Source: Catajapyx aquilonaris (lineage: Eukaryota). Taken from it: DNA of 64,000 nt. A model generated the notes under the pieces. The model saw nothing but the letters and a program-made list of their open reading frames with translations. It searched no databases and had not been told where the DNA came from. Within the stretch, counting starts at the first letter, position 1. Each line of letters opens with the position of its first letter. Below are positions 6,641-64,000 of this stretch, in pieces. The stretch is taken from NCBI GenBank assembly GCA_000934665.2, contig JYFJ02001098.1:1-64000 (forward strand), written 5' to 3'. A program made the translations under genes and the position numbers.

Positions 6641-7360
6641 ATGTGCTGGAGATCAGACCATAGAGCACGTGTCCTCTGCATCGCCTACATATCCATGGTA
6701 AGTAAAGCCCTCTCCAACAATAGTGCCCGGACATCTGTTGCGCCTACCGCCCAGTTTGAAATGCAACAACTGTGTTGTGTTATTATATGCCTCCTTTCAG
6801 GCAACCGCATTGTTGGGAAGCGGCATTGTTGCTGCAGGATTCACCATATACGCCTACACTCCCAGCACCAAGGAGAAGAGCAAATACAACATCGGAGGAG
6901 GTGACGATCCTCTTCCATCTTATTATACACACACAAAAATTTGGGTGGGGCTGCTCTTATCTGTGCAGGCGTGGCCCAGGCTGTCATTGCAATGATAACA
7001 CAATAACCTCTCATTGTTGCAGTGTTAGAAACAGTGATGCCGACGGCTCTTGCGGTCAACATCATCCATCACGTTGTGTCCATCTCTCTGGCCTGTGGAG
7101 CCCAGCAGGTATTATAATTATGGCCTACACAGCCAGTAGTTTTATTGTTGTAATAACAATTATTGCCATATATATGGTAACCAAACCTGGACAAACTAAC
7201 AAACTTTGCCTTTTATAATAGAGATAGATCACCATGGAAACTGATGGTTGCCATGTTAACCCAATTTGGACAAACAGACTAACAAACTCTGCCTTTTTAT
7301 ACATTTATAATAGAGATAGATCACTATGGAAACTTGTTGCCATCATGTTTACCCAATCCG

Positions 7361-7392
<32 letters not shown>

Positions 7393-7693
7393 TTACTTTG
7401 TATAATAATGGCGAGTATGGTAATAACTTGTATTGTTACTCGGGCTAATTACTTTGCAGGAGAAGCACACCCTTCTGCTGCCTTGGTTGGGGGCCACGGC
7501 CTTGGCCATTGTTGCTGCATTGTTGGGAGTGGCAGGCATGGCCATCAAGGAGTGGTCAGCGCCGTACTGGACGGCACCTCTGGTGCTGTGGGCCGTGCTC
7601 AACGGGTACTTCTGGCACGATGTGCTGCAGTTTTACAAGGGTCTGAGAGAAAGGGCGGACAGGCGGAGGGAATTGCAGACCAGAACAGTCTAA
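6641..7693 (+). CDS. T1: four-TM family protein (divergent), 158 aa
   Basis: Exons 6641-6697, 6801-6900, 7023-7108 (86 nt), 7460-7693, phases 0,1,0. Exon 4 starts EKHTLLLPW. Confidence 0.85.
7179..7410 (-). repeat. ~3 tandem ~90-bp units with (GACA)n microsatellite; Helitron-like end fragments in T1 intron 3
   Basis: The unit ..ggacaaac..taacaaact(c/t)tgcctttt..tataatagagatagatcac(c/t)atggaaact.. recurs, with (GACA)8 at 7361-7392. The reverse strand reads ATCTATCTCTATTATAAAAGGCAAAGTTTG, resembling arthropod Helitron 5' ends (inference). Confidence 0.5.
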
Positions 7694-9814: not shown

Positions 9815-11090
9815 TTACACCCTGTCATTCCAGACCTCATCTTCTCGCTTCTGTTCTTGCCTGAGAGCCCATGTCCTCCAGTCCTGTTTGCATGCCACGT
9901 ACAGCCGAAGGGAAGAAGCGGCCAGGAAAGCCACATTGCAACCTAGCACCACGTTTAGGAAGTAACCAGTCGTGGGATTGACATCCGCCGAGGCCAAATA
10001 CAAGCATACGGAAACCGCAATTAAAACAAATGTGCAGGTTACTTGATACAGCATGCTTTCCAGCCCAGAACTTCGGCGTCTCTGAAAATTAGGAATTCAG
10101 TCACGTCACTTCCAATTTACAGACTGATTAGGAAAGAACCTGAACATTCCTAGAAACGTACCGCTAGACTCTGCATCTCTTCAGCATCGGTTTTTGGGTC
10201 TCCTTGTAGTACATCTTGCCTACGAAGAGCCTTCAGTTTGCGGTAAAGTCTGGCCAGACGCATTATGAGGGTGAGGACTATGGCTGTGGACCATGAAAAT
10301 AGGGTCCAGTGGAACATGGACGAAAGTGTCTCCACAACTGGGAAGCAGTTCAGTACAAATGCATCGTAGATCACCACCAGGAACAAACCATGCCATCGGA
10401 CGTTACGACGCTATTAGGTGAAAAATTCAATGTAAAATTTTTGTGAACGACACTGGATTCCTGCAACCAACCTTGTAGGTTTCCATCAGCTTCTCCGATC
10501 CATAGAATGCGAGGCAAAAGACCAGCATAACAATGAAGACTTGCAGCACTGGAAATGGCATTACCATTACACATTTTTCATCTTAAAAAATTATGCTGTA
10601 ACAACATACATTCAAAGTCGAACTCTCCATCCTCCAAGTCGCTGTTGTTGTTGAAATATCCTGGGCCCAGTTCCAGCATAAGCCCGCTGATTCCCAGTAA
10701 CGCAAAACACTGAAAGATGATTACATTACCTTTTTCATTCCGTTGCTAATAAGCGGGTTAACTTACAAAGCATGTGACGACAGTCCACAAGTCGCCGGGG
10801 TATGGATCGTTTGCGATGGTCCTGTCGCTAATCTCCTCTTCAACCGGTATGGGCTTCGTCTTCTTCCAGTCGTCCACATAGTTGCGGGTAGCCTCAGCCG
10901 ACTTTTTGACGGACGCTGCGAACCACACTAAAATCAGATCGACCCGTGACCTCGGATTCGTTTCTGTCTTTCCATCGTCCCTCGTCACGTTGGTCACATT
11001 AGGGTTCAACAAGCACGCATTTTCTTCCGGCGCTGGTGCCGGACTCTCATTTTCTGGCGGAGATTGCGGCTCGGTTTGCTGAGCCTCCAT
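9815..11090 (-). CDS. L1: extended ~6-TM member of the family, 5 coding exons, 338 aa
   Basis: Exons 11090-10767, 10709-10610 (100 nt), 10548-10472 (77 nt), 10410-10162, 10081-9815; GT-AG, phases 0,1,0,0, 1017 nt in frame. It has a long acidic/Pro-rich N-terminus. A probable 5'UTR exon donor lies near 11470. Confidence 0.8.
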
Positions 11091-12229
11091 TGCTGCCTCA
11101 GTACCTGCAACGCACACCAAATTCATTACAATTTCTATACACTTTTATGACCAGCGGTGACGTCAATTTCCATACAAAGGTGGCATGTTCATTGCATTTG
11201 TCAACGTAAAGAAAATGCTACGTACACATAAGGTACACAATTACTTACATTGCAACAAGTACACTGTGCATGAGCATAAATTAATGGTAAGTGTTCCAAG
11301 GTCGAATAGTAAACAAACACTGTTGTGTACTTACTTGGTACCTACCATCTACATATCTTAAAAATTACAGCAAGTACTTGCACCTGCCAACTACTTAACC
11401 CAGACGGAGTAATTGGCGCTAATGAATGTGTTTTTTATCGCAATAATCGCAGGAGATAAAGTGAACTTACTTGTGTTCCTTTCTGTAGGAGGAAAATGGC
11501 TCTGTGGCCTTCAAACTGCGCATGCGTCAAAAGTCTGTACGTATCAAGCGGCCATTTTGAGTCCGACATTTTGGATCCTGAAAAGAGCGGCTGGTTTGAA
11601 TGCGAAAATTGTCGTTACAGCCTTTTTTTGCTTTTCTTTCAGAATCTAAGGGTTTTCTTTAAATGATTTTAGCACGGATATTAAGGTTCATTACACGCGC
11701 CGAATACTGTACAACTAAGTGCTGGGAATAAGCGAATTTGCTTGGGTGACTTTTCTTGCTCTTTCCCCAAGGTTAATGCCTTCAGTTCACGTCATTTGTG
11801 ACGCGGGTATAGTCGGCAAATTTTTTATACCTCACTTGGCTCTCATCGTCCTTTCCGAAGGCCGCTGAAGAGACAAATAACAGGGACGCCAGACTAATGT
11901 TTGTAAATATAATTGTGTTGTAGCATATGATTCCATTTGGATTTGAGCCTGTCATGAAAAGCGAAAGTGTTACGTTAAAAATCACGGTGCCTGGGTTTTT
12001 CCCTATGCAACGAATCAAATCATTTTACTGAGAATTTCACGGACTCCAATTCACTCGAAAAACAGTTGCATAATATTGTGTGGCATATAAGGACAGCAAG
12101 TTGCAATATGGATACGTGCGTAATTTCTCGGGTTCATATCTACGAGTGATTTGTATACAAATGCAAATAATGAGACAATTTGCAGATTATATACGTACAT
12201 AATATGCAATTTTCTCATTCTCAGACGAT

Positions 12230-12275
12230 TAGGCTACATTTTTGGGTATTACGTAATACCCAAAAATGTAGCCTA
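12230..12275. repeat. Perfect 46-bp palindrome with no spacer
   Basis: taggctacatttttgggtattac|gtaatacccaaaaatgtagccta. Confidence 0.95.
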
Positions 12276-13533
12276 TGTGGCCCATTCAGTTAGTTTAGTT
12301 TAGTGTTTGTTTAGTTTTTGTTTAATACAACCGGCCCTATAATTTTTGAAAGTAAAGTACTGCAAGAAAGTACGGAAGCGCGTACTGGTATAGGGCTATC
12401 CTATGCAAGACTGCATGGTGCCGATAAATAAACAAGAGCGATAGACAATACAGTCACGCAGCTAGGCGAGCTAGGCCAACAACCTATAGATAAAATAAGC
12501 TGGAGATAAGGCGGGCTATATAAGACAGGCTTCGTGACAATATAATTTCAACCGCACATCAGTATATGACAGTATACGCATGGATTTGTGAAATCTGGGG
12601 ATCACATGCGTACGTGCTAAATAACACGGCCGGGCAATTTTAAATGGAAATTGTTTACACTGTTTACACATGAGTACGTGTGCGTAAACACACGTGACGT
12701 CAGACCCCCGGGATCCCGTCTCGGGCTTGGGCTCCAATCGGGGGGATTCCCCTTGGCCACGACCAGGCTTGGAAGGGAAACCCCGCCTCTGTTCTCTTTG
12801 AACCTATACACCAAAAGAGCCTGACAAACTAGTATTTTCCTCACACAGTTTGAATGTACTCTGAAGTCCTGTGGTCAAGAAAAGTCTGTGCGGAGGTAAG
12901 TGAAGGAACATTAATGTTTGAAGGGTTTGACAGTCATGGGTTTATTTTGCGATCAGCTCCTGTACAGGCCTACACACCGTACTAATAAGTGATAATACAT
13001 AGCCACGCCAGGCTCTATAGACTCCTGATTTGCAATTTACTTCTAAAGTACTCCATATGTAGACTACTACATAAATGAAAAGGAAATAATAGTGTCGACA
13101 ATATTATTAGTATACCGTAATCATTATTTATTGTTCGGTGTTTTCCTTTTCTTGAGTCGTCTGTACGGTTCAGCGATTGTGACATTTTCTGCGAATATTT
13201 TCCGGTTGGGATTGTCAATATGTTGTAATTTTACAACTGATGTTGTAATATTACAACGTCTAGTAATATACGTCATAGCATATGTCATAGCGGTTTTTAC
13301 AAGGCCACATTCGCGGAAGAAGGTGTAGAAAACTGCAATTTTCAACTTTGACGTCATTGCAATTAGTAAACGCCAGAAGGTTTACGAAGTGCTCTAAATT
13401 AGAACTGGCAAAAGACAAGCATTGTTCGCTGTACTATATAGTACGGACACTTACTTCATGACGTTACTGCAATTGCTTGACTTACATTCTAAGACGGCCC
13501 CCTCTTATATTTTTCTTTCTTGCAGAGCCCAAT

Positions 13534-16500
13534 ATGAAGCTCTTAAGGCTGACCCTAAGTGACCTCAAGGCAAAAGCAGTCTCCATCGTCGATGATAGTG
13601 ATGAAGAGGAATGTGCAGAGATGACCTTCGACCGAACGACCGGATTGAGCGTGGCGCCTCTTCTGAAAGCGGATCCGAACAAAGTGGCCCTCTATGTCAC
13701 AGGTCAGCCAGGTCACAGCTGGCTCCTACTCTGCCAGATCAATCTAATTCCCCGGATTTTTCCGGACGCCAGCAAGAGGCTGCTCATTTGGACCTCTGGA
13801 TCCAGAGCGTGCACGTTATGCAGGACCATCGTTTTGTCTGTAAGTATTCGTTACATATATTAATTAGGCCGACTGGTACATGCATTAAATTGATTAAACA
13901 ATAGTGAATGATACTAATATCAAAAGTATTTTATTAGAAAAGTGTTATATTAATAATAAGTTAGTACATGATAGCAATTGCTTGGATTGCCGGGTTTATT
14001 GCGTACATTGATGTAGGCGGTACCGCATCGGCCTTGAACAATATCCTCATCACTGATGGCTCATAAAATTTTCCTGTTTTTTCACACAGTGAGGGACAAT
14101 ATTATTTAATGTTATCGGCTTATTGACTGCTCACACACACAAATGTTAGGGCACAAAGGAATAGCTTTGGGTCATCCACTGGTGGATTATAAAACGATTT
14201 TATGATTGAAAACCTGATATTTCTTCAGTGTATAATTATGACAAGTGCATTGCAAGTCAAAGGTGTATAATGAGAGAAAATAAAAATAGAGTTAGCAAAC
14301 ATTTGCTCAGTCTGGCGAAATAATGATTTTAATTTGATTTTGTTAAATGCGATGCTAAATTTACTGGTAACGGGGATATAGTAATACGACTTCAATGATA
14401 TCAAGTTTTATTACATTCACCGGGGAAAAAAAGATTGGAGATCAATCTAGTTTGAACAGGATGACGAGTATGTAACCATTTGAAAGGGGAATTAGTGGCC
14501 TTTGTTCAGGTGTGGACTTTCCTTCAAAGAACCTCTCTGAATTTGCTCTGTCATTGGATTTTACACCAATAAAATGATGCACGGGTATGTCTTTTGAAAT
14601 GCAGCAAGTCATTCCTCAGTGTATATGACTTGAATACTTCAAGTAATGCCAATCTGCCATCGCATATATTAAAAGGTAGGCCTATATCAGACAATAAGAA
14701 TGAGACGATTTTGAATTTAATTTAAAAAATCATAAATCGTTTTAATAATATTTTTGCTACAGTATAGGCTTACCGGCACTGACAACTGACATCACTGATT
14801 CAACTAGGGAATGGTCATAAAATTATGACTGCCAACAATGAAGCTAACGTAATATTTATTAAAGGCTCGCGAGAATAATACGTGGATTAAAGTATGTTGC
14901 AAATAAGAACAATTAGAATAATTAAATCGGGCTTTCTAGAGAGTTTCAATTATTATTTCTCTGTTGTCCACACCTTCGTCGGGTCCTGAGAATTTTATTT
15001 TGTTTACGGCAATATTTAATTTCTGAGTGTCTCTTTCGAAGGTTATATATTGTGATTTACAATACTTTTATTGCTTATATGAACGTAATTGACTATGGTG
15101 GCCCTCTTTGAATAGAGCATACATTATATTTTGATGATGATCATATAGCCTGTCTCTCCGTGTTGGTGGAATATTGGGAAAGATCAATTGCGTAAATCGC
15201 TCTATCAAGTTCGCCGCTCTGTACTTATCACTTAGCGGAATACTATCTCTTCCTTTTCTCTTTTCCTGCTGGGATTTCCTTGTGGGGACCACAGCTAGGT
15301 TATCCAAAATGTGTTTCGGCGCAATCCAATGTGGTGAAACATGTGCCATATATACAACACAGTACATAGACAGTACAATGATTAGAATTTAGGTCAGCAT
15401 GTAAATAAAAGGCTTCAATTCTTACCACTATAGTGTTGCAATCTATAGGCTACAGTAGCTACACAACTGCTAAAATCCGCAGTAGTACAGATCAGAAGAT
15501 ATTTCATTGATATATTCTGTGTCAAGTTAGTAGTCATGCACATATTGAGTGAATAAAATGAGCTGCTGTAGCATACATAATTAATCAGGTACTTTTTTCA
15601 GGTGGTGTCAGCTTTCCTCGTTTTCCTGAGCACGATGATCCTGTTCTACTGGAAAGCTGTGTCTGATGTCCTGGCTACAGATTTTCAAATGTTCGAGACC
15701 TCGGGTATGGCTGCAACATTTTAGCAAATTTCGTCACCTGAAAGTTACATTGTTGCACTGCAGGCCACTGCACACACAAAGATGGTGGAAAAGTCTCGGA
15801 TTCTCCTTTAGAATTTCTAAGATTGCTCTAATTTTCGGAGATACCGGTAAATTGCAGAGTGACTTTATGATATATGCCACTTGTATGAATGTTAGAGCAC
15901 CAAAGTTTGTTGCAATAATAGTCGTATATTCTGCAGAATGATCCTTATTCACATGGGTGAAAAATTCAACATAGGAAAAACTGGTATCGTAAGTGTTTGC
16001 TAACTTTCAAGTGACGATTTTAACTGATTATAAGTTACGAGATAAAGGTCATGCAATGACATTGCCCCCTCGTCTGATCAAAATGTCAATTAAAAAATAT
16101 TTCTGACCTTTTCCTGCAGGTTTGCACATCTTCGTTGTGGTAATTTTATGCTATGGAACCATCACATTTTTCATATGCTGGGTGCAACTCTACCAGCGAC
16201 AAAAGGTGAGGAAAATATCCCTTAAAAATATATTTTCAAGCAATTAATGATTGTGTGTCACATTTCAGCAGGGAATGGAAGATTCCAAATGGATCGCTAC
16301 TTTAACGTTTGTGTCCGAGTACTTAGCAATGGGAAGTGCCCTAGTTTTACTAGGGATCCACAAGCCATCGACACTGGCCTTGTTCGTCCCTTGGTTTCTT
16401 CCTATCGCGACACACGGCGCCATTGTTCTGTACGACTCATTGTTAAACGCACAGGAAAAAGACAGTGACTTATCTCTCATAGTAGAGGTGAGTGTGTGGC

Positions 16501-16985
16501 ACATTGGTGTCGTTTATATCTTTTTCACCGCAATATATGATACGCATGAAGTTTTTTCCTGACATAAAAATATTTGCAGCCATTGCATAAAATTTGTTTC
16601 GAATTTTCAGAGAGTGCAGCAGACGGCAAAGCGGGACATATGGATGCTTTTGTCGGACACACTCTTCCTGGGGACAGCCGTCGTTATGAGTCTGTTGCCT
16701 GGTTTTAGCTTAGGACTGGGCTTTACTATTGTGATAGCCAACTGCTTGCTTCTAGTTTACTTCCTCCTTTGGGCGCAACTCCATTTATATCTGATGACAA
16801 AGGAAGTTAAGTGTGTCAGTGTGGTGTGTGACTCGTCGGACTTGACATCTACTCAGATGCTAAAAGTGATGCCAATGGCACAGGAGTTGATAACTGACTC
16901 CAGAGATTTTTATGCTGTCTTTGCTAGTTGGCTAGTATCGAAAGGGCTAGCCAAATCAGCCCCTCACACGCCACTTAATCAGTAA
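13534..16985 (+). CDS. L2: extended ~6-TM member, 5 coding exons, 362 aa
   Basis: Exons 13534-13839, 15602-15704 (103 nt), 16120-16205 (86 nt), 16269-16487, 16611-16985; phases 0,1,0,0, 1089 nt in frame. Confidence 0.8.
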
Positions 16986-17280: not shown

Positions 17281-17400
17281 TTATGTACTGTATATTCACT
17301 GAATGTACTGTATATTCACTGAATGTACTGTATATTCACTGAATGTACTGTATATTCACTGAATGTACTGTCTATTCAATGAATGTACTGTATATTCACT
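17281..17400. repeat. Minisatellite, 6 x 20 bp (gaatgtactgtatattcact)
   Basis: Six head-to-tail copies are directly visible; the fifth carries two substitutions. Confidence 0.95.
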
Positions 17401-48652: not shown

Positions 48653-49537
48653 ATGGCGATTCTCAAACATTGCTGTTGCTGCTTCTCCTTGCGTACTGGA
48701 TCCTTGATTCTTGGAATATGCAGCTTGGTAAGCTTTTAATTGTTATAGAAGCAACTATCTTCTAACAAGTAACTTTTCTAAAATACTCGTATTAGATTGG
48801 GTGCATCATAGGCATCGTGGCCATGTGTGTAGTTTTGCCTGTCTTCAAGGATATTGCCAATAATATCCGCAGAGACCCCCCGGAAGGAGTTTACGATGTT
48901 GAAGAGTACATCAGCTGTATGTATCCACTTCGGTTTGAATTGCTGAAATGCAGAACGATCAGTCACATTTCGGCCTAAACCAAATCAGCAATGCGAGTTT
49001 TTTTTACTAATAGTCAATTCAGTTTTTTAAGCCGCTTAAGAAATATTATCCCGTATAATAAGTTCAAACTTTCAGAGATTGAATGTGACTCTAATCGTTC
49101 TGCACAGTGGTAGTTTATGAAGCGTAATATATATTGATTATTTTTACTAAACAGTCATACATGGCCTCGCCATCACTTTGCTGGTGATGTGCATCCTCGG
49201 CTTGCTCGAAACCATTCTGCTTATCCACGGAATCAGAACAGTAAGAACACTCTAATTATTAGTAGCCTAAATCAACAACATTATTAATCCCATGGTTAAT
49301 TTTTAGGAGCATCCAAAAATGATGATGCCATTCATCATCGTGAGTGCGATCGGACTGATCATTGGAGTGATCCTGGGCATTGTCATGATGGCTCGTGGAG
49401 GTGACCTGATATCCTCCATTATCACCATATGTGTAGATACGCCACTAGGGATATACTTCCTGATAGTGATATACTCCCACTACCAGGAGCTGAAAGAGGG
49501 TCAGGAAGTCGGAACTACCCCAGTCACAACCGCTTAA
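48653..49537 (+). CDS. T11: four-TM family protein, 170 aa
   Basis: Exons 48653-48727 (MAILKHCCCCFSLRTG), 48796-48916, 49155-49240 (86 nt), 49307-49537. Confidence 0.93.
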
Positions 49538-50506
49538 AAATTCAACAAATCATCGGGTTTGACTTTCGCTCGTCACGACCATTAATTAATGCTGATTTTT
49601 CACATAATATAATCATTTGTGTCACTGGACAGTAACGGTACAGCATTGCTGCGCTTATTAGCCTTAAAACGCCATGCTCTGTGTAGATGTTACTAAAAAT
49701 AATTACTATGCTTGTCGCATAAAATGGACGTGCAGGATAAGGAAGATTTTATTTACTGACTGTGGTCATACAAGGCTATTTAATGCTACCAGCATGCACT
49801 AATCTGTTGTGAATTTGTGATTTGTATGCAGCTTTTATACCAAAATAAAATGTGGGGCCTATATTTTAAACTTATGTACAATATTGACAACCTTCATGAT
49901 CATACCTTCAGGCTGTAATGCTACTGAAATTTATATGAAAAAGACAGTAAATAATTTTGAAGCAATTTCTTCAATATTATTTTTGAAGCACTTTCGTCAA
50001 TATTATTTTTGAAACCCTTTCACTCCATTTCAAGATGTTAAGTAATTCCTACGAATTTAGGCCGAAAAGGCCATTAGCAAAAATAATATCGCGACTTCTC
50101 TGTTGACTCCGATAAATGTCAAAAAAAAGTAGGCTGCACTAAAAATTACTGTGGCAGGCCTACGCCCCGGAGTAATCAAGGTTTGCTTGCAGACTATTAG
50201 TGCAGACTCGTAAAAGTGGAGAAAAGATCGGGTACACAGTAATGCCCCCGGAGTGTGGCGACTGCGCTGCGCCTCTTGATTACTTTGGAATGAAAGACGA
50301 CGTTTCTGACTTGTGAAGAGCACCAGGAAGTCAGGCCATAGCAGCCGGGTAACCCTCAAGCAGCTCTCAACTAATACATGATAGATTACATAGTTTATAC
50401 CAAGTGACAAGGCTGGCACATAAGAGGGACAAAATCAGAGGTGAGTGAACGAGTATTCAACATAGTAAAATAATGCTTATAATATACCACTTACAGGTCA
50501 GAAACC

Positions 50507-51224
50507 ATGCCAATTATTAACAAGTGCTGCGTATTCTTCACTTTACGAAAAGGGTCTCTTGCCGTGGGAATTATCAGCTTGGTAAGTCGTTATTTATTCA
50601 TTTACTCCTGATGGGGCTGAGGCACGTCCAACAATATAACTAGCCGAGTGCACCAAATAATAATTTTCCTTAAAGGTACTGTGCATCATATGCTCCTTGG
50701 TGATGATCAGAATCTTGATAACGTTTGAGAGCACTATTTCCAAGAGAATACGCAATCGTCCACCAACAGATGCTGACAACATTGAAAATTACATAGCAAG
50801 TAATATTGCATCTCGCTTTACGAGTTATGGCAAATGTTTGTACAATATTTTTATTTTCCAGTTCTTCGAGCTTTGATCATTGTTTCACTCGTGGCACTAA
50901 TTATTGGCGCAGTAGTTGCATCGCTGCTCATACATGGAATAAGAACGGTAATTTTTTGAAAAATTAATATGGTTGTGAGAATCAAAATTACAAATTTGAT
51001 TTTGTTTTCTTCAGGGCCGTCCGTTCTTGGTGATACCCTACTTGGTGATGGGGGCTGTCGATTTGGTGACTGGAATCATCATGGATGTTGTCATATTGGC
51101 TGAAGGTGTCAATAAGGTCTCGGTATTAATAGAGATGATAGTTTCGTCGGTGCTGGGAACATACGTTCTCTTGGTGGTGTTTTCGTACTATCAGCAGGTG
51201 CGCGAAAGAGCGCGGCAGGTGTGA
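50507..51224 (+). CDS. T12: four-TM family protein, 164 aa
   Basis: Exons 50507-50581, 50676-50799, 50862-50947 (86 nt), 51015-51224. Confidence 0.92.
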
Positions 51225-52929
51225 CCACTATTGTAGGAGAGAATGATCTTATGAAAAAAATAGTAGCGTCTGGTTTTGATAATAGAAAGCTGGAGAAATT
51301 GGGTATTGCACTGTGGGTAAGATTTTCCTGTAACTAAATTTTGAAAGTGAGCCTTGAAGTTGACCTCTTAATTTTTTTTCTCGCATTCACTTTAAATTTT
51401 AAAAATAAGGCACATGATATTTCCGCTCATTATTTTGTCTACACAGCTATATAATTATGCTGCCTAACTGTTAGGATCACAGTCATATCATGCTACAATA
51501 ATAATTGTACCAATGCAGTATTATTATTATTTTGTTCATGCGGACAGTAGCTTCCACTTTAATTAATTAATTACACTTGAAAATATTGGAACTTAGCACT
51601 AGATTTTCCTACGTATTTTTCATAATAACGCAGGCTCTTATTGTCGAAGGCTATCCATATTATAAATAATGCAACTAAACTTTTCACTTATACTATGCAC
51701 GTTCACACATTCAGTATTAGCCCTATCACTTTCGCGTTTTTATGTAGCCTAATTACTCTGAATATAAATACCAGTAATGTAATAAATCATGATAACATAA
51801 GATGGCTATATTAATTCTTGATATAATTTTATTTCCAAGGAAAGACATTTTCGACCACAAAATACATTCATTCCAAAAATGTGATACTGCTGCACTCTGA
51901 TGGAAATTCTCTGACTTTTTTTTACGCTACCCCGTGATAGGGCCATTTTAGAGAGGTTAGGAAATTCTGTGATTTAAATATATGCAACGCATGTTTAGTC
52001 GCCATAAAAGGGAATTCTTGCATCAATCATAACGCCGACTATAAGGTATGGTTTATAATGCATATAGCCTGCCCGTCTCATTCATGCCAGAGGAATCTTG
52101 ATTGCGACACGTGTGAAGCATCCTACGCACAGGTGTCCATATACGAGGAACTGGATCTGATTTATACTTCCCGGTGTGGATACCCTATAGAATGCAGCGT
52201 TATGTAAGAATGTTGTTGTCTTTCCCCCGGAATCATAGGCCAAAAAATAGACACTTACAGTATCTACGCGTGGGATCCGAATTTGGCGAGGGATGCTCTC
52301 AAGGCTGCGATAGTTTCAGTTCGTCTTATTCACTTCAGACGTAAGTACGCATATGTATTGTTCACGTATATTGTAGGACACTACGTGGACTTGCCCTTAT
52401 TATATTATTTAAATATTAGTAGACCCTACTTTTTAAAGCAATTTTTTGAAACTTGTTAGATATGTAAACTGCAAAATTATAATTAATATTAAATTACACT
52501 GCATGATTGTGTGCAATGTTTTTGTATTGTATTCCAACATGTCTCACATGAGTGAATTCATTCTTGTTCTAAAGCCTTTTACGCATGACTCCACAAATAA
52601 CTACCCTACTTAGCGATATTTTCTAAACATCACATAAAATTCACGGAAATCCTGGAATAAGTACATGCCCATCATTTTTCAAGAAAAATGGGCCATGCCA
52701 GCAAAGTGTGGGAGGAAGCTTATTACAGGGAGAGTGGGGCAACACACACTATTAATAGTTACTGGGTGACTTTGCCTCTGTACTTATGTCACTCTCTCAT
52801 TGCTGGTTTTGCCCGCACTAGTCCAACATCACATCTGACTGTCAATTATTATTCAAGATTCAGCAGTGACGTTTCAAGTACGTTTCGTAGGCAGCAGCAA
52901 GAGACCCACTGTCAAAAGGAAGAGGAAAC

Positions 52930-53791
52930 ATGCCTATTCTCAACAACTGTTGTTGTTGCTGTTCTACGCGAACAGGCTCACTCTACGTGGGAATAGTCAC
53001 CCTAGTAAGTATGTTAGTGACACCTTTTTGGAACAGTTGTTTGACCAATTTCTTCCCACGCAAGGTTGCGAGTAATTTGGGGGCACTTGGAATGATTGGA
53101 GTTTTGGTGGCGTACGATGACATTGCTCAAGCCATCCGGGAGGACCAAGCAAGTGGTGACAACACGGAAGAATTCATTAGTTGTGAGTAACAATGGCAGA
53201 TACAGCCTATGACACTTCCATCTCCTTTGAAACATCGATGACAACTGATTTTAAATTAAAAAATTAGTATACGTATAAGGATACCCGTCAGCATGTTCTG
53301 AAGTGTCTGAAGGCTTTGTAACGACATAAAGTCATCATCGAGGTTTTGGCTAGATCTTATTCATATTTAATTTTTTGCATTTATTGCAGTTATGCATATT
53401 GTTTCCATCGTCTCGCTGGTGCTGTTTCTGATTGGACTGGTCGTAGCCGGCCTTCTGATATACGGAATCGTAAAGGTACAGTATATAACATTTTAAAGGG
53501 CATTACATAATCAATGGCTAAAATGCTGTAATTTATTCGGACAAATTTTCCCGACAGATTAAGTCAACGCCTATGATTCCCTATCTCATCTTCGGTCTTT
53601 TCGCCCTGGTTCTTGGGATCATACTGGACACACTGACCATCACAAAAGGAGGCAACACGATCGGAGCCATTGCAGCAATGGTGCTCAGTACTCTGGTGGG
53701 CACGTACTTTCTTCTGGTCGTATTTTCGCATTACCAGGAAGTGAAAGAGCAACACAAAATTAATTGGCCGCCGATGCTGACCAAGATATAA
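52930..53791 (+). CDS. T13: four-TM family protein, 170 aa
   Basis: Exons 52930-53004 (MPILNNCCCCCSTRTG), 53065-53182, 53390-53475 (86 nt), 53558-53791. Confidence 0.93.
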
Positions 53792-54132
53792 GCAAAAGAT
53801 TTATTCTCCGCCACTGGCCAAAACCTTACTTCCAAAAAAAAACTGTATTAAAATAAAGGAAAGTATATTTTTAACTCGTAAATGTTGTGCGCACATTTCA
53901 TTCCTGGATATTACGTTCATTAATTTGGAAAAACGTGCTTGTCTTTGAATATTGTTGTTTTATTCTGTCAGTGGACATTGTTGGTCTAGTTTCCATGGAT
54001 AACTGTATAAGCAAGACCAGATTATTGCACACCAAAAATTAATCCCTTTTTTTGCTCCCGTCGATTTCATAATGCGATCCTGATTAGGCACATTCTCATT
54101 TAAAAACCACATCAGTATCTCTGCTATCCAAA

Positions 54133-55010
54133 ATGCCGTCTCCAGAAAGTGTCTGTGCTGGTATCAGTCTTTATTATGCATCTCACGCCATCTTGGTCGT
54201 GTACCTGGTAAGTGAGAAATATATTGAAACTCTTTTGATTGTACTTTGTCCAACCCGTAGTATGATCTAAATCGCGGATGTTTTAATAATAAGTTGATTT
54301 TTGTATTACACATGTTAGAAAAATTACAGAAGAAAAAAATTGCTTGCTCATTAAACGCCCTCGTATACAACTCATTACATCAATGCTTTTAATATATGAA
54401 AGAAACATAACTTAATTATTATTTGAAGATATTTAGCTTGCTGCTGGGTCTGGGGTCTATATACGGCCTGGTAGTCTTTGAGGATGAAATTTCGCAAAAA
54501 GTTCGCCAGGAAGCTTCAGAAGACGTGGACATCGAGATGCGCATTAAGGGTATGCTGCCTGCCAATCCTGTATGTAGTTGCAATATATTAGTCATACAAT
54601 GGTTAATCTTTCATTAGTGATCTTCTACATGCTTCTTGTTGGACTTGGAATAGCCATCATCAACTTCATCACCTCATATTTGTATCACTACTCAACGGTC
54701 AAGGTATACATGCGACAAATATAGGAAAAATCTTAAGGGATAATAACCAAAATATTTGTTTTTTCAGATTAAATCAGGATTCATGGTTCCCTGCATTGTC
54801 ATTTTTCTACTCGAATGGCTTCTATTCGCAGGAATTTTCATTACCCTGGCAGTAAAAAGAATTCATATGGCGGCAGCAGTAGCATGTCTAATGTGGATGA
54901 CTCCAATTTGGATATACGGTTTCATAGTCCTTTTTGCTGCCCACCAGCACATGCTTAATTGCGAAGCATTGGTGGATTTTTACATGATGTATTACGGACA
55001 GAACGTGTAA
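54133..55010 (+). CDS. T14: divergent four-TM family protein without the Cys cluster, 174 aa
   Basis: Exons 54133-54207, 54429-54549, 54618-54703 (86 nt), 54768-55010. Confidence 0.87.
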
Positions 55011-57157
55011 TAAATCTCTGTTTCCAAGCTGACTGATGCATTTTTAAAAAGCACTTTCTAAAAACTTGTACTAAAAAGGATATATTGGTGAATACCAGCC
55101 ACAACGACTTAAAAGACTAAAAACAACGACTCCATATGAACTGTTTCAACCCCTTGAAATAGTGGACTTGGCTGCTATCGGACCTCCATTGACCGTGAGT
55201 TAAAAGCATGTTGATAAATTCTTGTCTCGCAATAATAAACAACATGGGGCCATAACAAGTGCACTGCACTTAATTTCTTGCATAAACATATTTGGTCGTC
55301 TAATTTTGATCAATTGTTTCCGCCGCCATGCTGCATAGGAAAGCAGGGCACTGTACGTGTTATTTTCCCGTGAACCTAGTCCTGGCTATACTCCAAATAC
55401 CCTTGGGAATAAATACCCCCGGTGCAACACATGTGCTATTTGGCACCGTCTTCAGATTGGCGATAGGTATTTGCGACCTCGAGACACCCAATTTTTGGTT
55501 CCGTTTTCTTGGAACCATGGCGTACAATGTTACATCGTTTATGCTTATGGTTAGAAAATACAAGCAAAGTTTGTCGATACAGATTCGACACTACTCTTAT
55601 AGGTGTTCTGACAAATTATTCAGGCATGACGTTTCCGGCGTGTACCGCGTTGCCAGGTTTAGTGATGAACCGGTGTAATTGCATAAAAATGAAAGGTCAT
55701 TGGTACAGTACTGGAGGTAAGCCAGTAATAACACTTGTTTCGATGCACCATGCTGTGATGTTGGATGGACAAACCGACCTACCCTGACCTATCGAGCATT
55801 GAGGATTTGACCTGAATTACACGTCAGGTTCGCCCACATGAAGTGCAGGGCTACCAGCCACTCCAGGAGACGAACCTCTAGAGAAAATTGACACAACAAT
55901 ACACCTGAATATGTAACGCATTATTGCAGACCTTTAACCTTGTACCTTTTGGCTCATATCAAGTGAAGCCTGCAAGTTTGTGCCATTATTAGAATTTAAG
56001 CAGGGATTCGGCGAGAGGAGGAGGGATGGGGGAGATGGGGGGGGGAGTGAGGAAGAGAGACCTTAGGGATGGCATAGTCTATTTCAGAATTTGGGTGTGT
56101 CTGTGTAAGAGGGTTAAGGAAGCCCAAGAAGTGTGGAAGTGTTGATCTTGTAAGATCACTTCGCCCAATAAGGTAAGGCTGGTTTGTTTTTTTCCAACTA
56201 ATTTTTTTGGAGGGCATACGGATATGATTTTGATTTGGCTCAGTCAGTACAACATTCTCCTGAGAGCGAATTTGGAAGCTACCATAATATCCAGTGAAGT
56301 GTTAAATAAATTACCATTTTTGCAAACCTTTGAGGGCAGGTATTACTGAAATGATGTAACATAAGTATGCTACCTGAGGAGCAGCATATTGGCTAGTGTA
56401 TTAAACAATAGAGTTTTACATAGGAGTTTAGACGAATCAAAAAGGCTACTTTCATATTATAGGATATTACACTGCCCTAACTGTTGGGTTGTAAAAATAA
56501 ATCATTGTAAACACAGAATAATGCATTCCAGATCATGTAACTTATAACCTACATATGCATTGCTTATTGTATGAGATAACAGATTTATAGGCATACACTG
56601 AGCAATAACTTAAATGAGCCAGATGTTCGTATGTTGCTGCTCATATTAATGCGAATAATGATCTAAACTGGATCGTGTTATGTTTACGGAGAATAATTAC
56701 AAATTCTTTGTACTGTATCGCAGTTAAGAGCTGTATAATGAGTGTCTGTCCTTATTAAAAATTTAAAAAAAAGCTCAGTCACTTTGCCACCTTTTACCAA
56801 TGCAGAAACGAATACCATGCAGCAGTTATGCTGTCCAGAATAATATACTACCACCAGCAGAAATAGCGCCAACACATTTTTCAGTCACCCACAAGGTAAC
56901 GAGCACGTTGGGCCAGCAAAGCAAAACATTACGACTAGATACATCTGTTATTCTTACTGTTGTCCCATAGTAACAGCGACATTATGTGACATGTTTCTAT
57001 AGATGTCAGCACGTCTTCGTAAGCGCATGCTGTTGTGTATAGACATCGAACAGAGCAGTACAATGCATATGAGAATAAATACATAGCAAATCCAAGGTTC
57101 TGTTTGTTCACTTCCAGGTACGAAGTGCACTGCTGCCTGATACACGAGAGAGTCAAG

Positions 57158-57869
57158 ATGGCAATCCTCAACAGCTGCTGTTTTTGCTGCACCACCCGCA
57201 CAGGAACCCTCATTTTGGGAATATCCTCGCTGGTAAGTGTCATTAAGTAATGCTATCGGACTACAGATACAACTACTAATCTTTCCACACAAGATTGGAG
57301 CCATAATAGGAACCTGCGCGATGATATTGTTCTTCATCAGCTGGGGAATGATCAAAGAGGAAATAATTGATATGCATAATAAGGACCCGAAGTTAGCTCA
57401 TGAGGACATAGACATGACCATTAACGGTTTGTAAAGTATAATGTCATCCGAAAATTCGAAGCACTACAATCTAATTTCGATTTCAGTTTTGCTGGGAATT
57501 GGTATCTTCTTTTTGGTACTGTTTGTCCTGCACGTTCTAATCGCTTCTCTGCTCATTCATGGAGTTAGAAAGGTAGGTCCAATTCTGCATGTTATATTAA
57601 TGTTATGATTAATAATTGGTAATGTTATCTTTCAGATGATCGCCGGTATGCTTATCCCGTACTTGGTGTTCATGGTTCTCGGACTAATCTTCATGATAAT
57701 CAGCGCCGTTCTGGGGATAGTTTACGCGAAGCAGACAGTCGTGGGCATTGTCGGCATGGTATTGGATATACTACTGTCCATCTACTTCTTCCTGGTGGTC
57801 CTGTCCCACTACCAGGAGCTGAGGGACCGCCAGGGACGGATCGGAGTCCCAACTGACAGCAAGTTCTAA
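57158..57869 (+). CDS. T15: four-TM family protein, 175 aa
   Basis: Exons 57158-57232 (MAILNSCCFCCTTRTG), 57294-57426, 57487-57572 (86 nt), 57636-57869 (..VPTDSKF*). Confidence 0.93.
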
Positions 57870-60309
57870 AAAAAGAGACTCGGATTGCTTTGAGTGCATA
57901 TTTCTCGCCGGGAGATGGCATTGGCTTACTCAACCTGGCCTTGCCATCCAGTGGCTTTGTTTATTAGCGTCAGAAAGTGAACAAAAAAAATAATTTGCAA
58001 TTGTAATTGCAACAGTCTATTTCTCGCATACATGTGAAGTGTTGCCGCTTATCTGGTTAAATTATTCACGTAGCATTTTATACTATTGCTCCGTGCACGA
58101 TTATTTCGTTTGAGTTGAAGAACTGTAATTTCTTCAGTTATTGTGATCGTTTTGTAAAAAAAGAAATTGTAGCAGCATGTTTTTTTTGAACATTTTCTTC
58201 GTATATTCTCAGACTATGATATAAAATGCTTGAAACGAAGTTTTAAAAAAGCTTCTGTTCTTTACAATGCATTTTTTAAAAGAGAAATCTTCTGGTCCCT
58301 TTGCATTTGAATACTTTGGAAATGTGACCCTGATCATTCTACAACTCTGCTTATATACCTTCTATATACAATATACTTTTACACTACCTCGTGGGGAACA
58401 GACCACATTTCAGGGTACAATAAACAAAAATATTCTCACGCAATGCAATTTAAATAATTTCTCCCGGCGCGGCGTATAGGAAAACAAGTTGTTAAAAATA
58501 TATCTCTAACTACAGGACCAGCTGCACTGTCAGGTTATCAATAATATTTATGTCTGGTGCAACACTATATTATCATTGTTGGGAAATATCAAAAGTATAA
58601 AATAAATGAAAACCCATCGCAATTAAATTGTAATTAATATTAATTAATAACATTGTATGGGTTGACACTATAACGGGTCAGAATGGGGTAAAAGAAATAA
58701 AAAAATTAATAACATGGACACAGTCCAACTAAAATTAATAATAATCAAAATAAAAATATTACCGTATTCAAACAATAATGCTCCCGACCTATAGTGCAGC
58801 CAGCTCTTAGTCATTAAGTTTTACAATTAAATTTTGGCCAAAATTTATAACGTTCTTTAACACAGGCGTTAAATATAGACCAACAGGTGTCGTTGCCACC
58901 GTCCTGCTTCATTGCACATCCCTCAATATATAAAAAAAAGTTGAGTTGTATATACACCGGCAAATCCTCCTCCCTGTAAACTCATTAACTGCAAGCCGGT
59001 TTGGCATGAGTCCAGCCTATATCCTTGGTTCATTCGACGTGTGTGTGTGTCACATTGTATGATACACACATGCATCGCGTTCACCTTGTCACGGTTTTTT
59101 GGGTCCGACCTACATGCCAAAGAGCAAATTGCCTCAGCATCACATCAACTGACTTGCTCATTTAGCATCCCACGCTATTGGCACCAATATGCACACATAC
59201 TGTACAGGTTAGCTCAGAATCTTTGTGCTTACGTGTGCCGCGTCTTCAGGAAGTCTGCCGTAATAAATTCCTGATTGTCTAGGAACATTGCGGCGATGTT
59301 GCCGGATGGAACTACGCAAAAAAAAACAATATATAGTGGGTGTGTTCGTGTGTATATATTTTTTTCCGCATCGTCTAAAAAAAGCGTCCTTGAGTTTGAG
59401 TATATACCGACCTTGTAGATCACAGTGCGATCCATAAATACTCTCTCAAGAAATCGGTTGTAGACCAGAAAAATTTGTACACGTTTTATACCCCGGAAAA
59501 TAAAAGTTGATATGCAGAGTCTGAGATTAAAGAGGACAGAAATGTTATTTATTTATTGTACAAGAGATGGTAAATCATTTGACTGACAATCCATAAATCC
59601 GGATTTACCTGGATTCACTGAATAAATCCAAATGATTCGTGTCAGATTCATGCAAATTTCTTTGTGGTGGTAACTTTCATAATATGCACAATGAACAAAT
59701 TGGCGTTACTACCTTTGCTGTTCTGACTACGGCGCAAGCGCACAGCTGCCCTTTTTTGGTGAAAAGAAGGCGGGGATTCAAGTTGTGAGAGCTTGGCTTG
59801 CATGGTTCACTACTTCACTTGGTACAGTTGGTAGTTGGGCGAGTGTGCAGGTGGAAAAAGGGGGTGAAACCTGTTGTGGTGAGTCACTTTTTTGTGTGCA
59901 TGTGTGTTGCTCTCTACGTTGCAAAAGTTTTCCCTTATTTTCACCACTCGAGAGCCGTTAGTATTTTCCAAATCCGACGTTGTTAACTGTTAAATCATGA
60001 TTAGTTACCAGTGAGTAGCACTGTCTATTGTTGTTAGTCATCCTGTTTGATGTGCGTATATATTTTTGATCTATGAGGGGTTAAAATCTTAATCGGGTTA
60101 CCTGCGGTTTGCTGAGTTCGAGGTTGTTAGTCAACCCTTTCGCTGGCGATGATGTCATTCTTCGGAAGGTTTTTACTACAGTTGGATGGCTATCTTTCCG
60201 GCAGGAGTCTCTGTACAGAGTTGCCACGTTTCTTTGGAGGGCACCTGTTTGCATTGTTTCATTCACTTTGATAGTTTTCAGACCTTGTGAGGTATACTAC
60301 TGAACGAAA

Positions 60310-61224
60310 ATGCCGCTTCTCAACACGTGTTGTTGCTGCTTCTCGACGCGTACGGGCACCCTCATCATCGGGATAATGAGTCTGGTATGTTGTAGTCATA
60401 ATGGAAGGTGCGGGCTGTACGTGTAATGATTTTTTTAAATGCTAGATTACGAGTATCCTGGGAGCTGTTGCATCTGTGGCGATTTGGGTATCCTGGGAAT
60501 ACATCTCGAAAGAAGTGAGGAAGAACCCTCCAGCTGATGTGGACGTCGAGGAACTTCTCAACTGTAAGTTAGCCCTTTCTATTTGACCTTCTCAAAACGC
60601 GATGCACATTCCCAGCGATAAGCTGACTGCATCATGCAATATGCCATGAAGTACAAAAATGGCTAACATATGTGCAAGCTAATGAATTATTTATAAATTC
60701 CAATTTCCTTGTTGAATTGCAACAAATACCGGGTGGCGCATAGCCCAAGTGAAGCGTTTGTGAAAGAAAAAAAATTATTTATTATTTTTGACAGGTACTA
60801 AAATAGAGTGGCTAATGCAATATTATTGGGTTTTCGCAGTTGTTCGCATATCAGTCATCGTATTCCTGGTGATGTGTGTAATAGCAATCATCATCACATC
60901 CATGCTCATCCATGGTGTCAGGAAGGTAAGTCTCATTACTACTGTAATTTAATAAGTAATTGTTCTAACTTGTGAAACCCCCATTGACAGATGAAACCAG
61001 GACTGTTGCTGCCTTACATTGTGTTAAGCGTGATTTGCATGATCCTGGCCGTGGTCTTCAATGTCTACCTGATGATCAATGGGAAGAGAACCATCACTGG
61101 GATAGTCAATATCTGCGTCGGAACCCTTGTCAGCATCTACTACATCCTGGTGGTCTACTCCCACTACCAGGAATTGCGCAACAGAGAAGGAAGAATGAGT
61201 GTGCCCACGGATAGCAAGTTCTAA
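60310..61224 (+). CDS. T16: four-TM family protein, 170 aa
   Basis: Exons 60310-60384, 60446-60563, 60840-60925 (86 nt), 60991-61224 (..VPTDSKF*). Confidence 0.93.
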
Positions 61225-63932
61225 GAGACTCTGAAGGGCGACAATTTGCTATTACTTTGCTTCAATATACACTCTGCTGCTATGCATTTTGAAAGAAAAA
61301 AAAATTATTCGTGAATTTGCGGATATCGAGGGCACAGATAATGTAGGAGCACATTTTTTTATGCGACCAAAATTATTGCGCAATAGTTATGAAAAAACCA
61401 CTTGGTAGTTGCAGGTAAATATTTTAAGGAAATATACGTTAGGCGTGATTGAGATTTCTTGCACATTCCAAAAAACATGCCATGAACTATTCTGTAAGAG
61501 TTGTGTGTGTATTGTGGGAGTCATAAGTAAGCAACAAACATAATTAGTGCCTTTTTGCATGTGATCAGGAAAAATATCAACAGTTTTTGATACGTTAATT
61601 AAGCGGAAAATACTAGAATGAAACCAGTTTGAAGGCCATTCCCACTACTCTTGACACCCACAATATGACAGGATTATATTTTGATAAACATTCCATTGCC
61701 CTTGACTGATGTCTTGTGTGCTTTATTGAGTTATACTCTTTATGATGTATAAATTGTAGCTCTTGATGTGGATTTTTTCATACATTATATACCCTGTTTG
61801 TACGTCTTTAAAATACATTCCTTTGAAATCATTTCATGCATTTTACGTCCACAGATGGTATTTGATACTCACAATAAATTATCATATTTTTGGCTGTTTA
61901 CAATGTGTCAAAAAAAATTAATGCAAACATTTTATGCCAATTGCATTCTAAAGTCACTTGACATGTGAACTTTTGCATGTGTTCTACATTTAGGGGGAAT
62001 GCCCCGCCCTTTCCTGGAGGTCAGGGAACTACTTTTTTGACCTCTACAAAGCATGAAAGAGTCTCTTATTTATTGCCGGAAATTAGGTTTGCGAATGAAG
62101 TGATACATGACATACCAGTACCTATATCAGGCCTGCATATATGCAATACAAAGCCGGCTACATGGAGCTGGTCCAATATTGTCCTACAGGAAATATCATC
62201 ACAATAATTATTAAGAGTAAAGATTAAATAACACAAATGATCACGTGGCATGAGCAATAAAAAATGGCAACATAAATTATTGGAAGGATATCCTAACAAT
62301 GAGACAATAAATCAAACCATTTTGTTCCGATGTACAGTTACCATTTTGTCTATTTGGCTACTAATCATGCCAGTTAGTGTCAGTATATGCACATAATTAT
62401 GCTACATATATTCCGTTAAAATACAGTTATATAACAGGTGCTCAGAATTTTGATCATGGACAGATTGGACTAAAGTGCGCAAATTATAAAATAAAATTGG
62501 AATAATTTGACTAAAGAATGATGCTTTTAATCTACAAGCAGTAATAATGTTATCTATATGACCACGCTTCAAGGAAAATAGTGGTTAGTCTTTAGAGAAC
62601 CACAATGAACCGCAGAACAGGAGGAGTTATCTTGGGTACATGATGTAATGAGCTCTAGAGAAAAGTGGCCTGGCAATTGGATATCTAATCACTAATATTA
62701 ATCACTGCTGACCCTTAGGGTGACAATTTCACTCCTACATCATCTTTCTGGGAATTGAGTGTATATCATATTATTTTAGCAAAGTGTCATTTTTTTACTG
62801 GCACTGTGTGACACTAATTATAATTTGCGTACTGAACAATCTGGAAGTTTTTGCATAGTTCAGGGAACAACGAATGACAATCGTAATTAAAATACATGTA
62901 ATTGTCGCAGTGAGTATAGCATTGGAGGCGGATGTCAGGTATTACTATCAGAAACTATTTTTTTGCTACAAGGATGGAAATAAATTAGGCTACTATTGAC
63001 CATCAATAATAAGTATTTTGTAGAAGTTTTCATCAAATTGGAAGTTTTCATTATAACTACTCAATTCTTACATCAATTTGTAGCACATTCACTGCTGCAC
63101 TAACAGTACAGATTTGCAACAGTGGCATACAAGTTAGGTATATGACTACTACTGTAAGTTATGTGGCCAAAATGATAAATTATCTTATAGAACAATTTAA
63201 GCTATGCGATCATAAAGAGGAATGTGCTGGGAGAAAGCTTTTGCTCCAAGTATAAGCAGCAGATTGGGCTTCGGCTAATCGCTATCGGGATCACTTATAC
63301 AGTATATTATACATCGCAATCTGCCTCCCCCATATGCCAGTGGATATCGAGTGAGTGCAGACGTGCTGGATACACGTACTTACACACAGTCTACAGAACA
63401 CAAACACGAGAGAGGTAAGTCTTTTGCTTGTAAAAATACTATATTTACATCCATCCAATGCAATGTTTCGAATATGATAATATTCTAAACACATGTTGGA
63501 GATTAATCGAGTACAGTACACTTTGCTGACTTGTGTGTGGCGTTGTTATGGCATGCTTATACAATAATAAAAGTAACACATTTGATTCAAAATCGTGTGA
63601 AGTAACGAACATGCAGAGTACATAGGAACGGCAGTAGAGTACAATCATCTTTACGTCACTGATATTAATAAGGAGAGATTACTGTCCCATAAATATCGCG
63701 TCACTTGTAGCTTTCTGGCAGCTGTAAATTTCTTGCATGTGTACGCTGCACTTAAGTAAGCTACATGTTGACAGGGTCTGATTAATCTTATTGCTCCTGT
63801 ACGTCTCTTTCCTCCAACGTGTAACTTACACGAGTTCGCCAAGTTACATGAACAGAGCAATCAAAATTTCGCCTGACACTCTCAAAAATCGACAGATTAT
63901 ATTATTTTTTCTTACAGATTTTTCAGTTCCAG

Positions 63933-64000
63933 ATGGTGCGCTTAAATTCGTGTTGCTTTTGCTGCTCTACGCGCACAGGCTCATTAATTTTAGGATCATG
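63933..64000 (+). CDS. T17: first coding exon of another family member, truncated by the window end
   Basis: MVRLNSCCFCCSTRTGSLILGS.. preceded by a polypyrimidine acceptor. Confidence 0.85.
   Translation, partial: MVRLNSCCFCCSTRTGSLILGS

Follow-up and report, generated by a model that had tools for sequence, protein, structure and literature searches.

According to Deligiannaki et al. 2015 (PMC4582180), members of the pasiflora family are small four-transmembrane (TM) proteins with both ends inside the cell and a larger first outer loop, marked by a PW motif at TM3 and a VxSQYQ motif at the end of TM4. The same paper gives nine members in Drosophila and describes Pasiflora1 and Pasiflora2 as core septate-junction components that localise to the plasma membrane. 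The pasiflora/DUF4728 family is otherwise almost unstudied, although these two fly members are essential for the septate junction. Here we analysed a stretch of 64,000 nucleotides (the window) of contig JYFJ02001098.1 from Catajapyx aquilonaris, animal DNA with a GC content of about 40%, in which positions 6641-64000 hold an array of related tetraspan membrane-protein genes. The best explanation, to which we give a probability of about 0.7, is a lineage-specific tandem expansion of the DUF4728/pasiflora-Fire exit tetraspan family whose products have a putative scaffold role.

Seventeen complete genes, and a further one (g63) that is truncated at the end of the window, were rebuilt in this region, all on the plus strand (Table 1). 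The motifs picked out in the initial annotation of the window were found to recur on this strand between about 34 kb and the end of the window. Starting from seven last exons, a family hidden Markov model (HMM) was run iteratively on the full set of 2800 six-frame open reading frames (ORFs) and converged on 16 last exons, all of them on the plus strand. As an independent check, an HMM was built from 95 proteins of other organisms only (the external HMM). It detected the last or fused exon of 16 genes at a domain E below 0.01, namely fifteen of the sixteen found by iteration and the fused exon of g24 (24534-24722). The last exon of g19 was detected at E 0.029, and exon 1 of the cut gene, at 63933, at E 1.5e-5 over profile positions 1-21, which supports the earlier claim that the array continues past the window edge. 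Nineteen complete genes had been counted initially, all but one (L1) on the plus strand. Seventeen of them are supported, g19 weakly (18.6 bits), and these and g63 do lie on the plus strand; L1 and the candidate g16 showed no significant similarity to the family.

Gene models were enumerated under the exon blueprint of the initial annotation and then scored with the family HMMs. The 17 complete models encode proteins of 158-219 amino acids (aa), all their introns are GT..AG and their frames are open. In an alignment of 16 models (all complete models except g24), intron 1 (phase 0, inside TM1) shares a single column across 15 of the 16; intron 2 (phase 1) occupies one column in 14 and lies one column off in the other two; and intron 3, in phase 0 after TM2, occupies one column in all 15 models that have it. 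The annotated phases 0/1/0 hold in these models, and the annotated range of exon 2, 94-133 nt, is the same in the rebuilt models. Exon 3 is 86 nt long in 14 genes (15 had been reported) and 92 nt in g27; in g24 and g47 it is joined to exon 4, two such fusions having been expected. The 77-nt case listed earlier is that of L1, which lacks family similarity.

Since the models were built under phase constraints, independent checks matter, and these were provided by segment counts, database alignments and RNA. Open hydrophobic segments of 86 nt between AG and GT numbered 16 on the plus strand versus 4 on the minus strand, while other lengths gave 3-7. The spliced models aligned end to end with database proteins. 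For the RNA check, contigs of a single public run of unspecified kind (X1), which contains 28% of the sampled words of 47001-57000, were aligned to 43201-63200. The contigs behave as transcripts, because their sequence matches the window at 100% identity and their joints are GT..AG. All 13 coding-intron joints listed for them agreed exactly with the models, within the cut offsets stated for the tool: four genes (g49, g53, g57 and g60) contribute all three of their introns, and g47 contributes intron 2 (47687>47754). Comparison of RNA junctions with predicted exons, the check proposed at the outset, therefore agrees with the models of five genes, and at least five copies are transcribed and spliced as predicted.

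The X1 contigs also revealed introns in the 5' untranslated region (UTR), 50438>50495 (56 nt) before g51 and 56170>57116 (945 nt) before g57, which means that some of the genes, at least, begin with an additional non-coding exon; in g57 it ends at about 56170. Such an exon was absent from the original blueprint. The g53 transcript contig spans 52359-54358, and the proposed exon 1 of g54 falls within this 3'UTR contig. Gaps in X1 cover within 43201-63200, for example 54540-55873, which takes in most of g54, are uninformative on expression.

Table 1. Coordinates of array genes, candidates and the flanking gene in the window, with the start of the ORF holding each last exon found by the iterated HMM and selected scores against the external HMM.
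Feature	Strand	Exons or span	ORF start of last exon	External HMM	Remark
g7	+	6641-6697, 6801-6900 (100 nt), 7023-7108 (86 nt), 7460-7693	7427	last exon E 3.6e-14; model 77.8 bits	exon 1 least certain
g19	+	17898-17972, 18055-18157 (103 nt), 19060-19145 (86 nt), 19443-19691	19416	model 18.6 bits, scored with exon 4 start 19440 (later 19443)	weak member; long branch
g22	+	21675-21755, 21832-21925 (94 nt), 22397-22482 (86 nt), 22682-22909	22628	exon 3 E 6e-4; last exon E 4.1e-6
g24	+	23150-23239, 23313-23406 (94 nt), 24538-24836		model 38.6 bits; fused exon alone 24.4 bits	exons 3 and 4 fused
g27	+	26991-27065, 27136-27253 (118 nt), 27327-27418 (92 nt), 27760-28134	27739	last exon E 2.8e-11; model 80.1 bits	long C-terminal tail
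g31	+	30690-30767, 30838-30931 (94 nt), 31075-31160 (86 nt), 31269-31541	31263
g34	+	34274-34351, 34430-34550 (121 nt), 34631-34716 (86 nt), 34788-35003	34770		young g34/g37/g41 group
g37	+	36285-36362, 36432-36540 (109 nt), 37090-37175 (86 nt), 37251-37466	37224
g41	+	40487-40564, 40637-40742 (106 nt), 41296-41381 (86 nt), 41458-41673	41425
g43	+	43373-43450, 43515-43623 (109 nt), 43686-43771 (86 nt), 43862-44092	43814	last exon E 2.2e-18
g47	+	47441-47515, 47582-47687 (106 nt), 47754-48073	47729		exons 3 and 4 fused; exact VxSQYQ motif
g49	+	48653-48727, 48796-48916 (121 nt), 49155-49240 (86 nt), 49307-49537	49307
g51	+	50507-50581, 50676-50799 (124 nt), 50862-50947 (86 nt), 51015-51224	51000
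g53	+	52930-53004, 53065-53182 (118 nt), 53390-53475 (86 nt), 53558-53791	53522
g54	+	54133-54207 (uncertain), 54429-54549 (121 nt), 54618-54703 (86 nt), 54768-55010	54747	last exon E 0.0027; model 45.6 bits	degenerate motifs
g57	+	57158-57232, 57294-57426 (133 nt), 57487-57572 (86 nt), 57636-57869	57609		coding exons
g60	+	60310-60384, 60446-60563 (118 nt), 60840-60925 (86 nt), 60991-61224	60988		first read by eye
g63	+	63933..64000		exon 1 E 1.5e-5	first exon of another copy, truncated at the window edge
L1	-	11090-10911, 10709-10610, 10548-10472 (77 nt), then 10410-10150 or 10081-9815			candidate
g16	+	16120..16985: 86-nt open AG..GT segment 16120-16205, TM-rich ORFs 16251-16559 and 16563-16982			candidate
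NADSYN1-like gene	-	3007..5873			glutamine-dependent NAD(+) synthetase; flanks the array, head to head with g7

Judged by their sequences, the array genes are members of the DUF4728/pasiflora family, as the initial annotation had called them. DUF4728 (PF15860, gathering cutoff 26.7 bits) was the best Pfam match for 7 of the 11 family ORFs scanned. The scan was made on single exons or ORFs, the Pfam model, for a family with no described function, spans TM2-TM4 only, and single exons fell just under the cutoff save that of g49: the scores were 26.8 bits for g49, 26.2 for g7, 25.8 for g60, 24.8 for g47, 19.5 for g24, 17.7 for g57 and 17.4 for g27. For g22 and g37, no DUF4728 match was obtained with the last exon in this single-exon scan. 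Against the external HMM, the models of g7, g27 and g54 scored 46-80 bits.

A profile of the 16 last exons retrieved 186 proteins at E<=1e-3 among 1.84 billion, only three of them below E 1e-10. Thirty of the top 45 relatives were scanned against Pfam; 28 of these carry DUF4728, 25 at or above the cutoff. The domain is likewise present in all three hits of an additional search. The named relatives, all annotated as "uncharacterized", come from Daphnia, Lycorma, Schistocerca, Periplaneta, Blattella, Lutzomyia, Homarus, the copepod Acartia and the hemichordate Ptychodera. The closest relative, P0001, is an unnamed protein of 172 aa from a transcript contig (DUF4728 31.1 bits) with 51% identity over its full length to g57 and g60 (E 1e-45 with g60). 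When 12 of the 17 spliced models were compared by blastp with the relatives from the profile search, ten matched at E 1e-8 to 1e-45, g37 at 4e-8 and g22 at 1e-5; P0001 aside, none of the 12 had a relative above about 37% identity. A homologue search with the last exon of g60 as query, set to longer lengths, found nothing. Two of the relatives were unusual in themselves: DUF4728 occurs twice within P0008 (Schistocerca piceifrons, 243 aa), suggesting that part of the protein was duplicated internally, and P0002 (1449 aa), in which 21 stretches matched the profile, is probably a fused or repetitive prediction.

The family motifs named initially do recur, in relaxed form in 11-14 of the 16 models and in strict form in only 1-6, and the N-terminal cysteine motif has a spacing of x4 rather than x3. 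A relaxed PW motif (Pro followed by W, Y, F or P) was found in 14 of 16 models, the exceptions being g37 and g54, and exact PW in g7, g19, g22, g27 and g31 only. The TM4-end motif occurs in relaxed form in 11 of 16; the exact VxSQYQ was seen only in g47, S(H/Y)YQ in g49, g51, g53, g57 and g60, and S(H/C)YR in g31, g34, g37, g41 and g43. Most family motifs have been lost from g19, g22 and g54, which sit on long branches. The consensus of the external HMM contains the cysteine cluster, a basic turn after TM2, Pro-Trp at TM3 and S-Y-Y-Q-E-L at the TM4 end; the array thus carries motifs that are an ancestral family feature rather than a peculiarity of its own.

The link to Pasiflora that had been named in the initial annotation proved sound when set against the family description in PMC4582180. 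The array proteins resemble Pasiflora1, Pasiflora2 and the Fire exit family as characterized there in their length of about 160-220 aa, their four TM segments, a predicted topology with both ends inside and a first outer loop that is the larger one, and they share S-x-Y-Q at the end of TM4 and a Pro-aromatic motif where TM3 begins. They differ in number, with at least 17 copies in one array versus the nine members given for Drosophila, and in the PW motif, whose Trp is kept in only five array models, with Tyr, Phe or Pro taking its place in most of the rest.

The aligned models show four hydrophobic segments, a crude hydropathy scan giving 3-5 per model, and the charge distribution suggests a topology with both ends inside. 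The AF2 model of P0001, for which 71 relatives were used, is confident (pLDDT 92.5, pTM 0.81); it has four long helices, and in loop 1 the helices of TM1 and TM2 are extended. Foldseek found no match to this model in the PDB at E<=1e-3. VIA-align placed Kei1 first (Z 11.3), followed by Tspan15, CD53 and CD9 (Z 10.2-11.1), values too low to show kinship between helical bundles, for which a Z of about 13 is advised.

When the family profile was compared with sequences, CD81 was matched at E 3e-5 (over TM1-TM3), UPK1B at 1e-3 and CD9 at 0.018; a designed coiled coil was the top match of the same search, so that composition may contribute to these values. From these profile and fold matches, a distant link of the TM bundle to tetraspanins (CD81, CD9, Tspan15; PF00335) is possible. 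Membership of the tetraspanins themselves was rejected: loop 2 is only about 5-13 aa long, there is no large second outer loop, and CCG was found in 0 of 16 models. Claudin/PMP22 was likewise rejected, as a regular expression for the W-GLW-C-C signature matched 0 of 16 models and the only Pfam hit was Claudin_2 at E 0.31 in one exon.

Pairwise identity among the 16 models was 10-48%, with g57/g60 (48%) and g27/g31 (46%) at the top of this range; the exceptions were g37/g41 (82%) and g34 versus g37 and g41 (56-61%). The closest paralogues are array neighbours in each case. At the DNA level, 35920-37670 and 40103-41861, which include g37 and g41, are 83.6% identical, and the rest of the array shows no DNA-level similarity apart from a non-coding element of about 1 kb (32418-33382 and 38023-38963, 85.8% identity) that lies upstream of g34 and between g37 and g41. 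This element is part of the recently duplicated unit; it contains repeated ORFs with no Pfam match above cutoff.

Ratios of nonsynonymous to synonymous substitution rates (dN/dS) were estimated by the Nei-Gojobori method. The four older pairs gave values of 0.20-0.37 (g57/g60 0.20, g49/g53 0.21, g27/g31 0.37), showing purifying selection on the older copies. Values were higher for g34 versus g37 and g41 (0.51-0.69) and for g37/g41 (0.91 at dS 0.09).

In a quick tree of the 16 window proteins and 95 relatives the window genes were scattered (6 changes) and the backbone was poorly resolved. A tree in which the 16 window genes and P0001 were held together had a log-likelihood 24 units above that of the free tree (p-AU 0.74). 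A single lineage-specific clade is thus allowed by the sequences, even preferred, and not proven. According to the initial annotation, conserved 1:1 orthologues across arthropods would have indicated an old, static cluster; none were found among the relatives searched, the source lineage being poorly sampled.

The tandem expansion of the pasiflora/DUF4728 family probably arose by repeated local duplication of a gene with four coding exons, which gave at least 17 complete copies in 57 kb and further copies beyond the window edge. The copies have retained the ancestral intron positions, the four helices, the N-terminal cysteine cluster and the family motifs, and the rest has drifted to 10-48% identity. 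Purifying selection on older copies and near absence of constraint on the youngest correspond to the usual birth-and-death pattern. Each protein would be a four-helix bundle with both ends cytoplasmic and a cysteine cluster that is probably palmitoylated. By analogy with Pasiflora1 and Pasiflora2 in septate junctions, the proteins are probably lateral scaffolds that assemble with other membrane proteins, and the copies would serve different tissues, stages or partners.

Several points weigh against this explanation. The scaffold or junction role is extrapolated from only two Drosophila relatives, at best candidate orthologues of the array genes. No place in the family could be found for L1 and g16, and only the g49 exon reaches the DUF4728 cutoff alone in single-exon scans. 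The free quick tree scatters the window genes, so that a single clade is no more than permitted. To judge from their degenerate motifs and long branches, g19, g22 and g54 may be non-functional. Expression is supported by a single run of unspecified kind, in the form of contigs.

Full-text literature searches found three papers that mention DUF4728 and none on tandem expansion of the DUF4728/pasiflora family. The array is new as an instance and not as a kind: it is a well-supported annotation result describing a fairly ordinary family expansion. It shows that very rapid expansion and divergence of the family are possible in some arthropods, and its at least 17 copies form a natural variant series marking the residues that the fold needs, namely the cysteine cluster, the HG(I/V)R(K) turn, the TM3 Pro and the S-x-Y-Q at the end of TM4. 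If the copies are tissue-specific junction or scaffold subunits, the locus would help to explain the variation of arthropod epithelial barriers.

The initial annotation had interpreted the array as a recognition repertoire, in which a fixed membrane scaffold carries a variable outer loop. On this reading the copies would present diversified outer loops and act as receptors or co-receptors in chemosensory, immune or toxin-binding roles. The MS4A proteins of mammals, for which a receptor-like recognition role has been proposed, offer a comparison: MS4A/CD20 proteins (PF04103) are small four-TM proteins whose genes are clustered in tandem. No sequence relation to the array was found, CD20 matching the family profile at E 4.9-6.6 and no Pfam CD20 match being listed in the scans of window ORFs or of the 30 relatives; the Foldseek likeness of the P0001 model to an MS4A protein, the Fc epsilon RI beta chain, is weak (E 0.93, TM-score 0.42-0.44). 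The size, fast evolution and lineage specificity of the array would suit such a repertoire, as would the variability of loop 1, whose mean identity of 15% (22% gaps) is the lowest of the exon-2/3 regions. Divergence reaches well beyond the loop, however. Mean identity was 32% in exon 1, 20% in the second half of TM1, 25% in TM2, 25% in the inner turn, 19% in TM3, 10.5% in loop 2, 24% in TM4, 35% in the C-terminal motif and 10% in the tail. With TM helices only 19-25% identical, the contrast between a fixed scaffold and a variable loop had been overstated: the loops are most variable, as in most membrane proteins, and the scaffold itself is only about one-fifth to one-quarter conserved. Loop 1 is moreover short (20-35 aa in most models), has no conserved cysteines and carries an N-x-S/T site in 1 of 16 models, is helical in the P0001 model, and is variable throughout the family, in other animals too.

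The dN/dS of loop 1 was the highest finite regional value in the older pairs with finite estimates, at 0.42-0.83, which remains below 1. It exceeded 1 only in the comparisons of g34 with g37 and g41 (1.3-1.55), a value that rests on about 20 nonsynonymous and about 4 synonymous differences. In the youngest pair, g37/g41, the excess was found in exon 4 (1.56) and not in the loop. Relaxed constraint in loops and young duplicates fits these data at least as well as a recognition repertoire, which is neither supported nor refuted by the analysis and which we consider unlikely.

A related and slightly less probable proposal is that of a surface repertoire of one arthropod lineage, in which the two outer loops, and perhaps the tail, would be under diversifying selection on a palmitoylated four-helix scaffold, with copies in different cells setting partner or ligand specificity. 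If true, this would be an arthropod counterpart of clustered tetraspan receptor families, with roles in cell-cell contact coding, chemosensation, or pathogen or toxin binding.

No better is the chance that the array is mostly decaying, with few functional copies and the rest young redundant duplicates or transcribed pseudogenes drifting neutrally. The near-neutral ratio of g37/g41, the loss of family motifs in g19, g22 and g54, the overlap of the g54 start with the 3'UTR of g53 and the fact that L1 and g16 are unrecognisable by sequence would all be explained by decay. It is countered by the open frames and GT..AG sites at conserved positions in 17 of 17 models, by the low dN/dS of the older pairs and by the correctly spliced transcripts from at least five copies.

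LAPTM4 and LAPTM5, four-TM proteins of the Mtp family (PF03821), steer sorting in endosomes and lysosomes. That the array encodes endolysosomal adaptors of this type, steering the sorting of transporters or receptors, is the least probable of the alternatives: a few DUF4728 relatives match Mtp too (among the 30 scanned, P0018 passes the Mtp cutoff at 30.8 bits, and P0005 and P0036 match weakly), and the initially noted link between the two families is in print for the Drosophila family member CG15098, reported with both Mtp and DUF4728 in a passage of bioRxiv 10.1101/2024.04.13.589362, but membership was rejected because no Mtp match at E<=1 was obtained for any of 12 window ORFs scanned singly and a PPxY or LPxY tail motif was present in 0 of 16 models, and the family section of PMC4582180 places Pasiflora1 and Pasiflora2 at the plasma membrane.

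The gene flanking the array scored 56.3 bits on Pfam NAD_synthase and is 70-77% identical to named arthropod relatives (insects, horseshoe crab, ostracods and copepods). Between the copies no unrelated gene was found, in agreement with the initial annotation: none of 40 long inter-gene ORFs and none of 86 ORFs in 11150-15450 reached a Pfam cutoff. An Rfam scan of the window gave no RNA family match.

The candidate L1 has the form of a four-exon, four-TM gene with good acceptors and fitting splice phases. It scored only 1-6 bits against either family HMM, with an hhalign probability below 1%, and its last exon had no usable Atlas match. For g16, the best of 3304 candidate models scored 3.1 bits, the hhalign probability was at most 1.4% and there was no Pfam match. 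Both may be extremely diverged members of the family or something else.

ORFs encoding two hydrophobic helices and a basic or acidic tail, resembling a second TM3-TM4 cassette, were observed at 9815-10081 (minus strand), 16563-16982 (plus) and 19959-20429 (plus), after the last exons of L1, g16 and g19, respectively. A single in-frame stop codon (16560-16562) parts the second of these from the preceding ORF. They could be alternative last exons, relics of partial duplication, or chance. Alignment by hhalign of L1, g16 and the ORFs 9818-10081 (minus), 16563-16982 and 19959-20429 with the family profile gave probabilities of at most 5.4% throughout.

Between L1 and g16, in a stretch that is otherwise empty, an ORF of 133 aa was observed at 13462-13863 on the plus strand. 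A phmmer search against the PDB matched it to the C-terminal part of mevalonate diphosphate decarboxylase (residues 316-404) at E 0.067; an Atlas search pointed instead to a proteasome OB domain (0.89), and Pfam gave nothing. It may be a gene fragment or chance. The spacer before g19 contains a tandem repeat at 17283-17400, with 5.9 copies of a 20-nt unit and 95% matches. Between g43 and g47, where no gene was modelled, an unspliced X1 contig of 547 nt lies at 44968-45513 and may be an untranslated or unannotated transcript.

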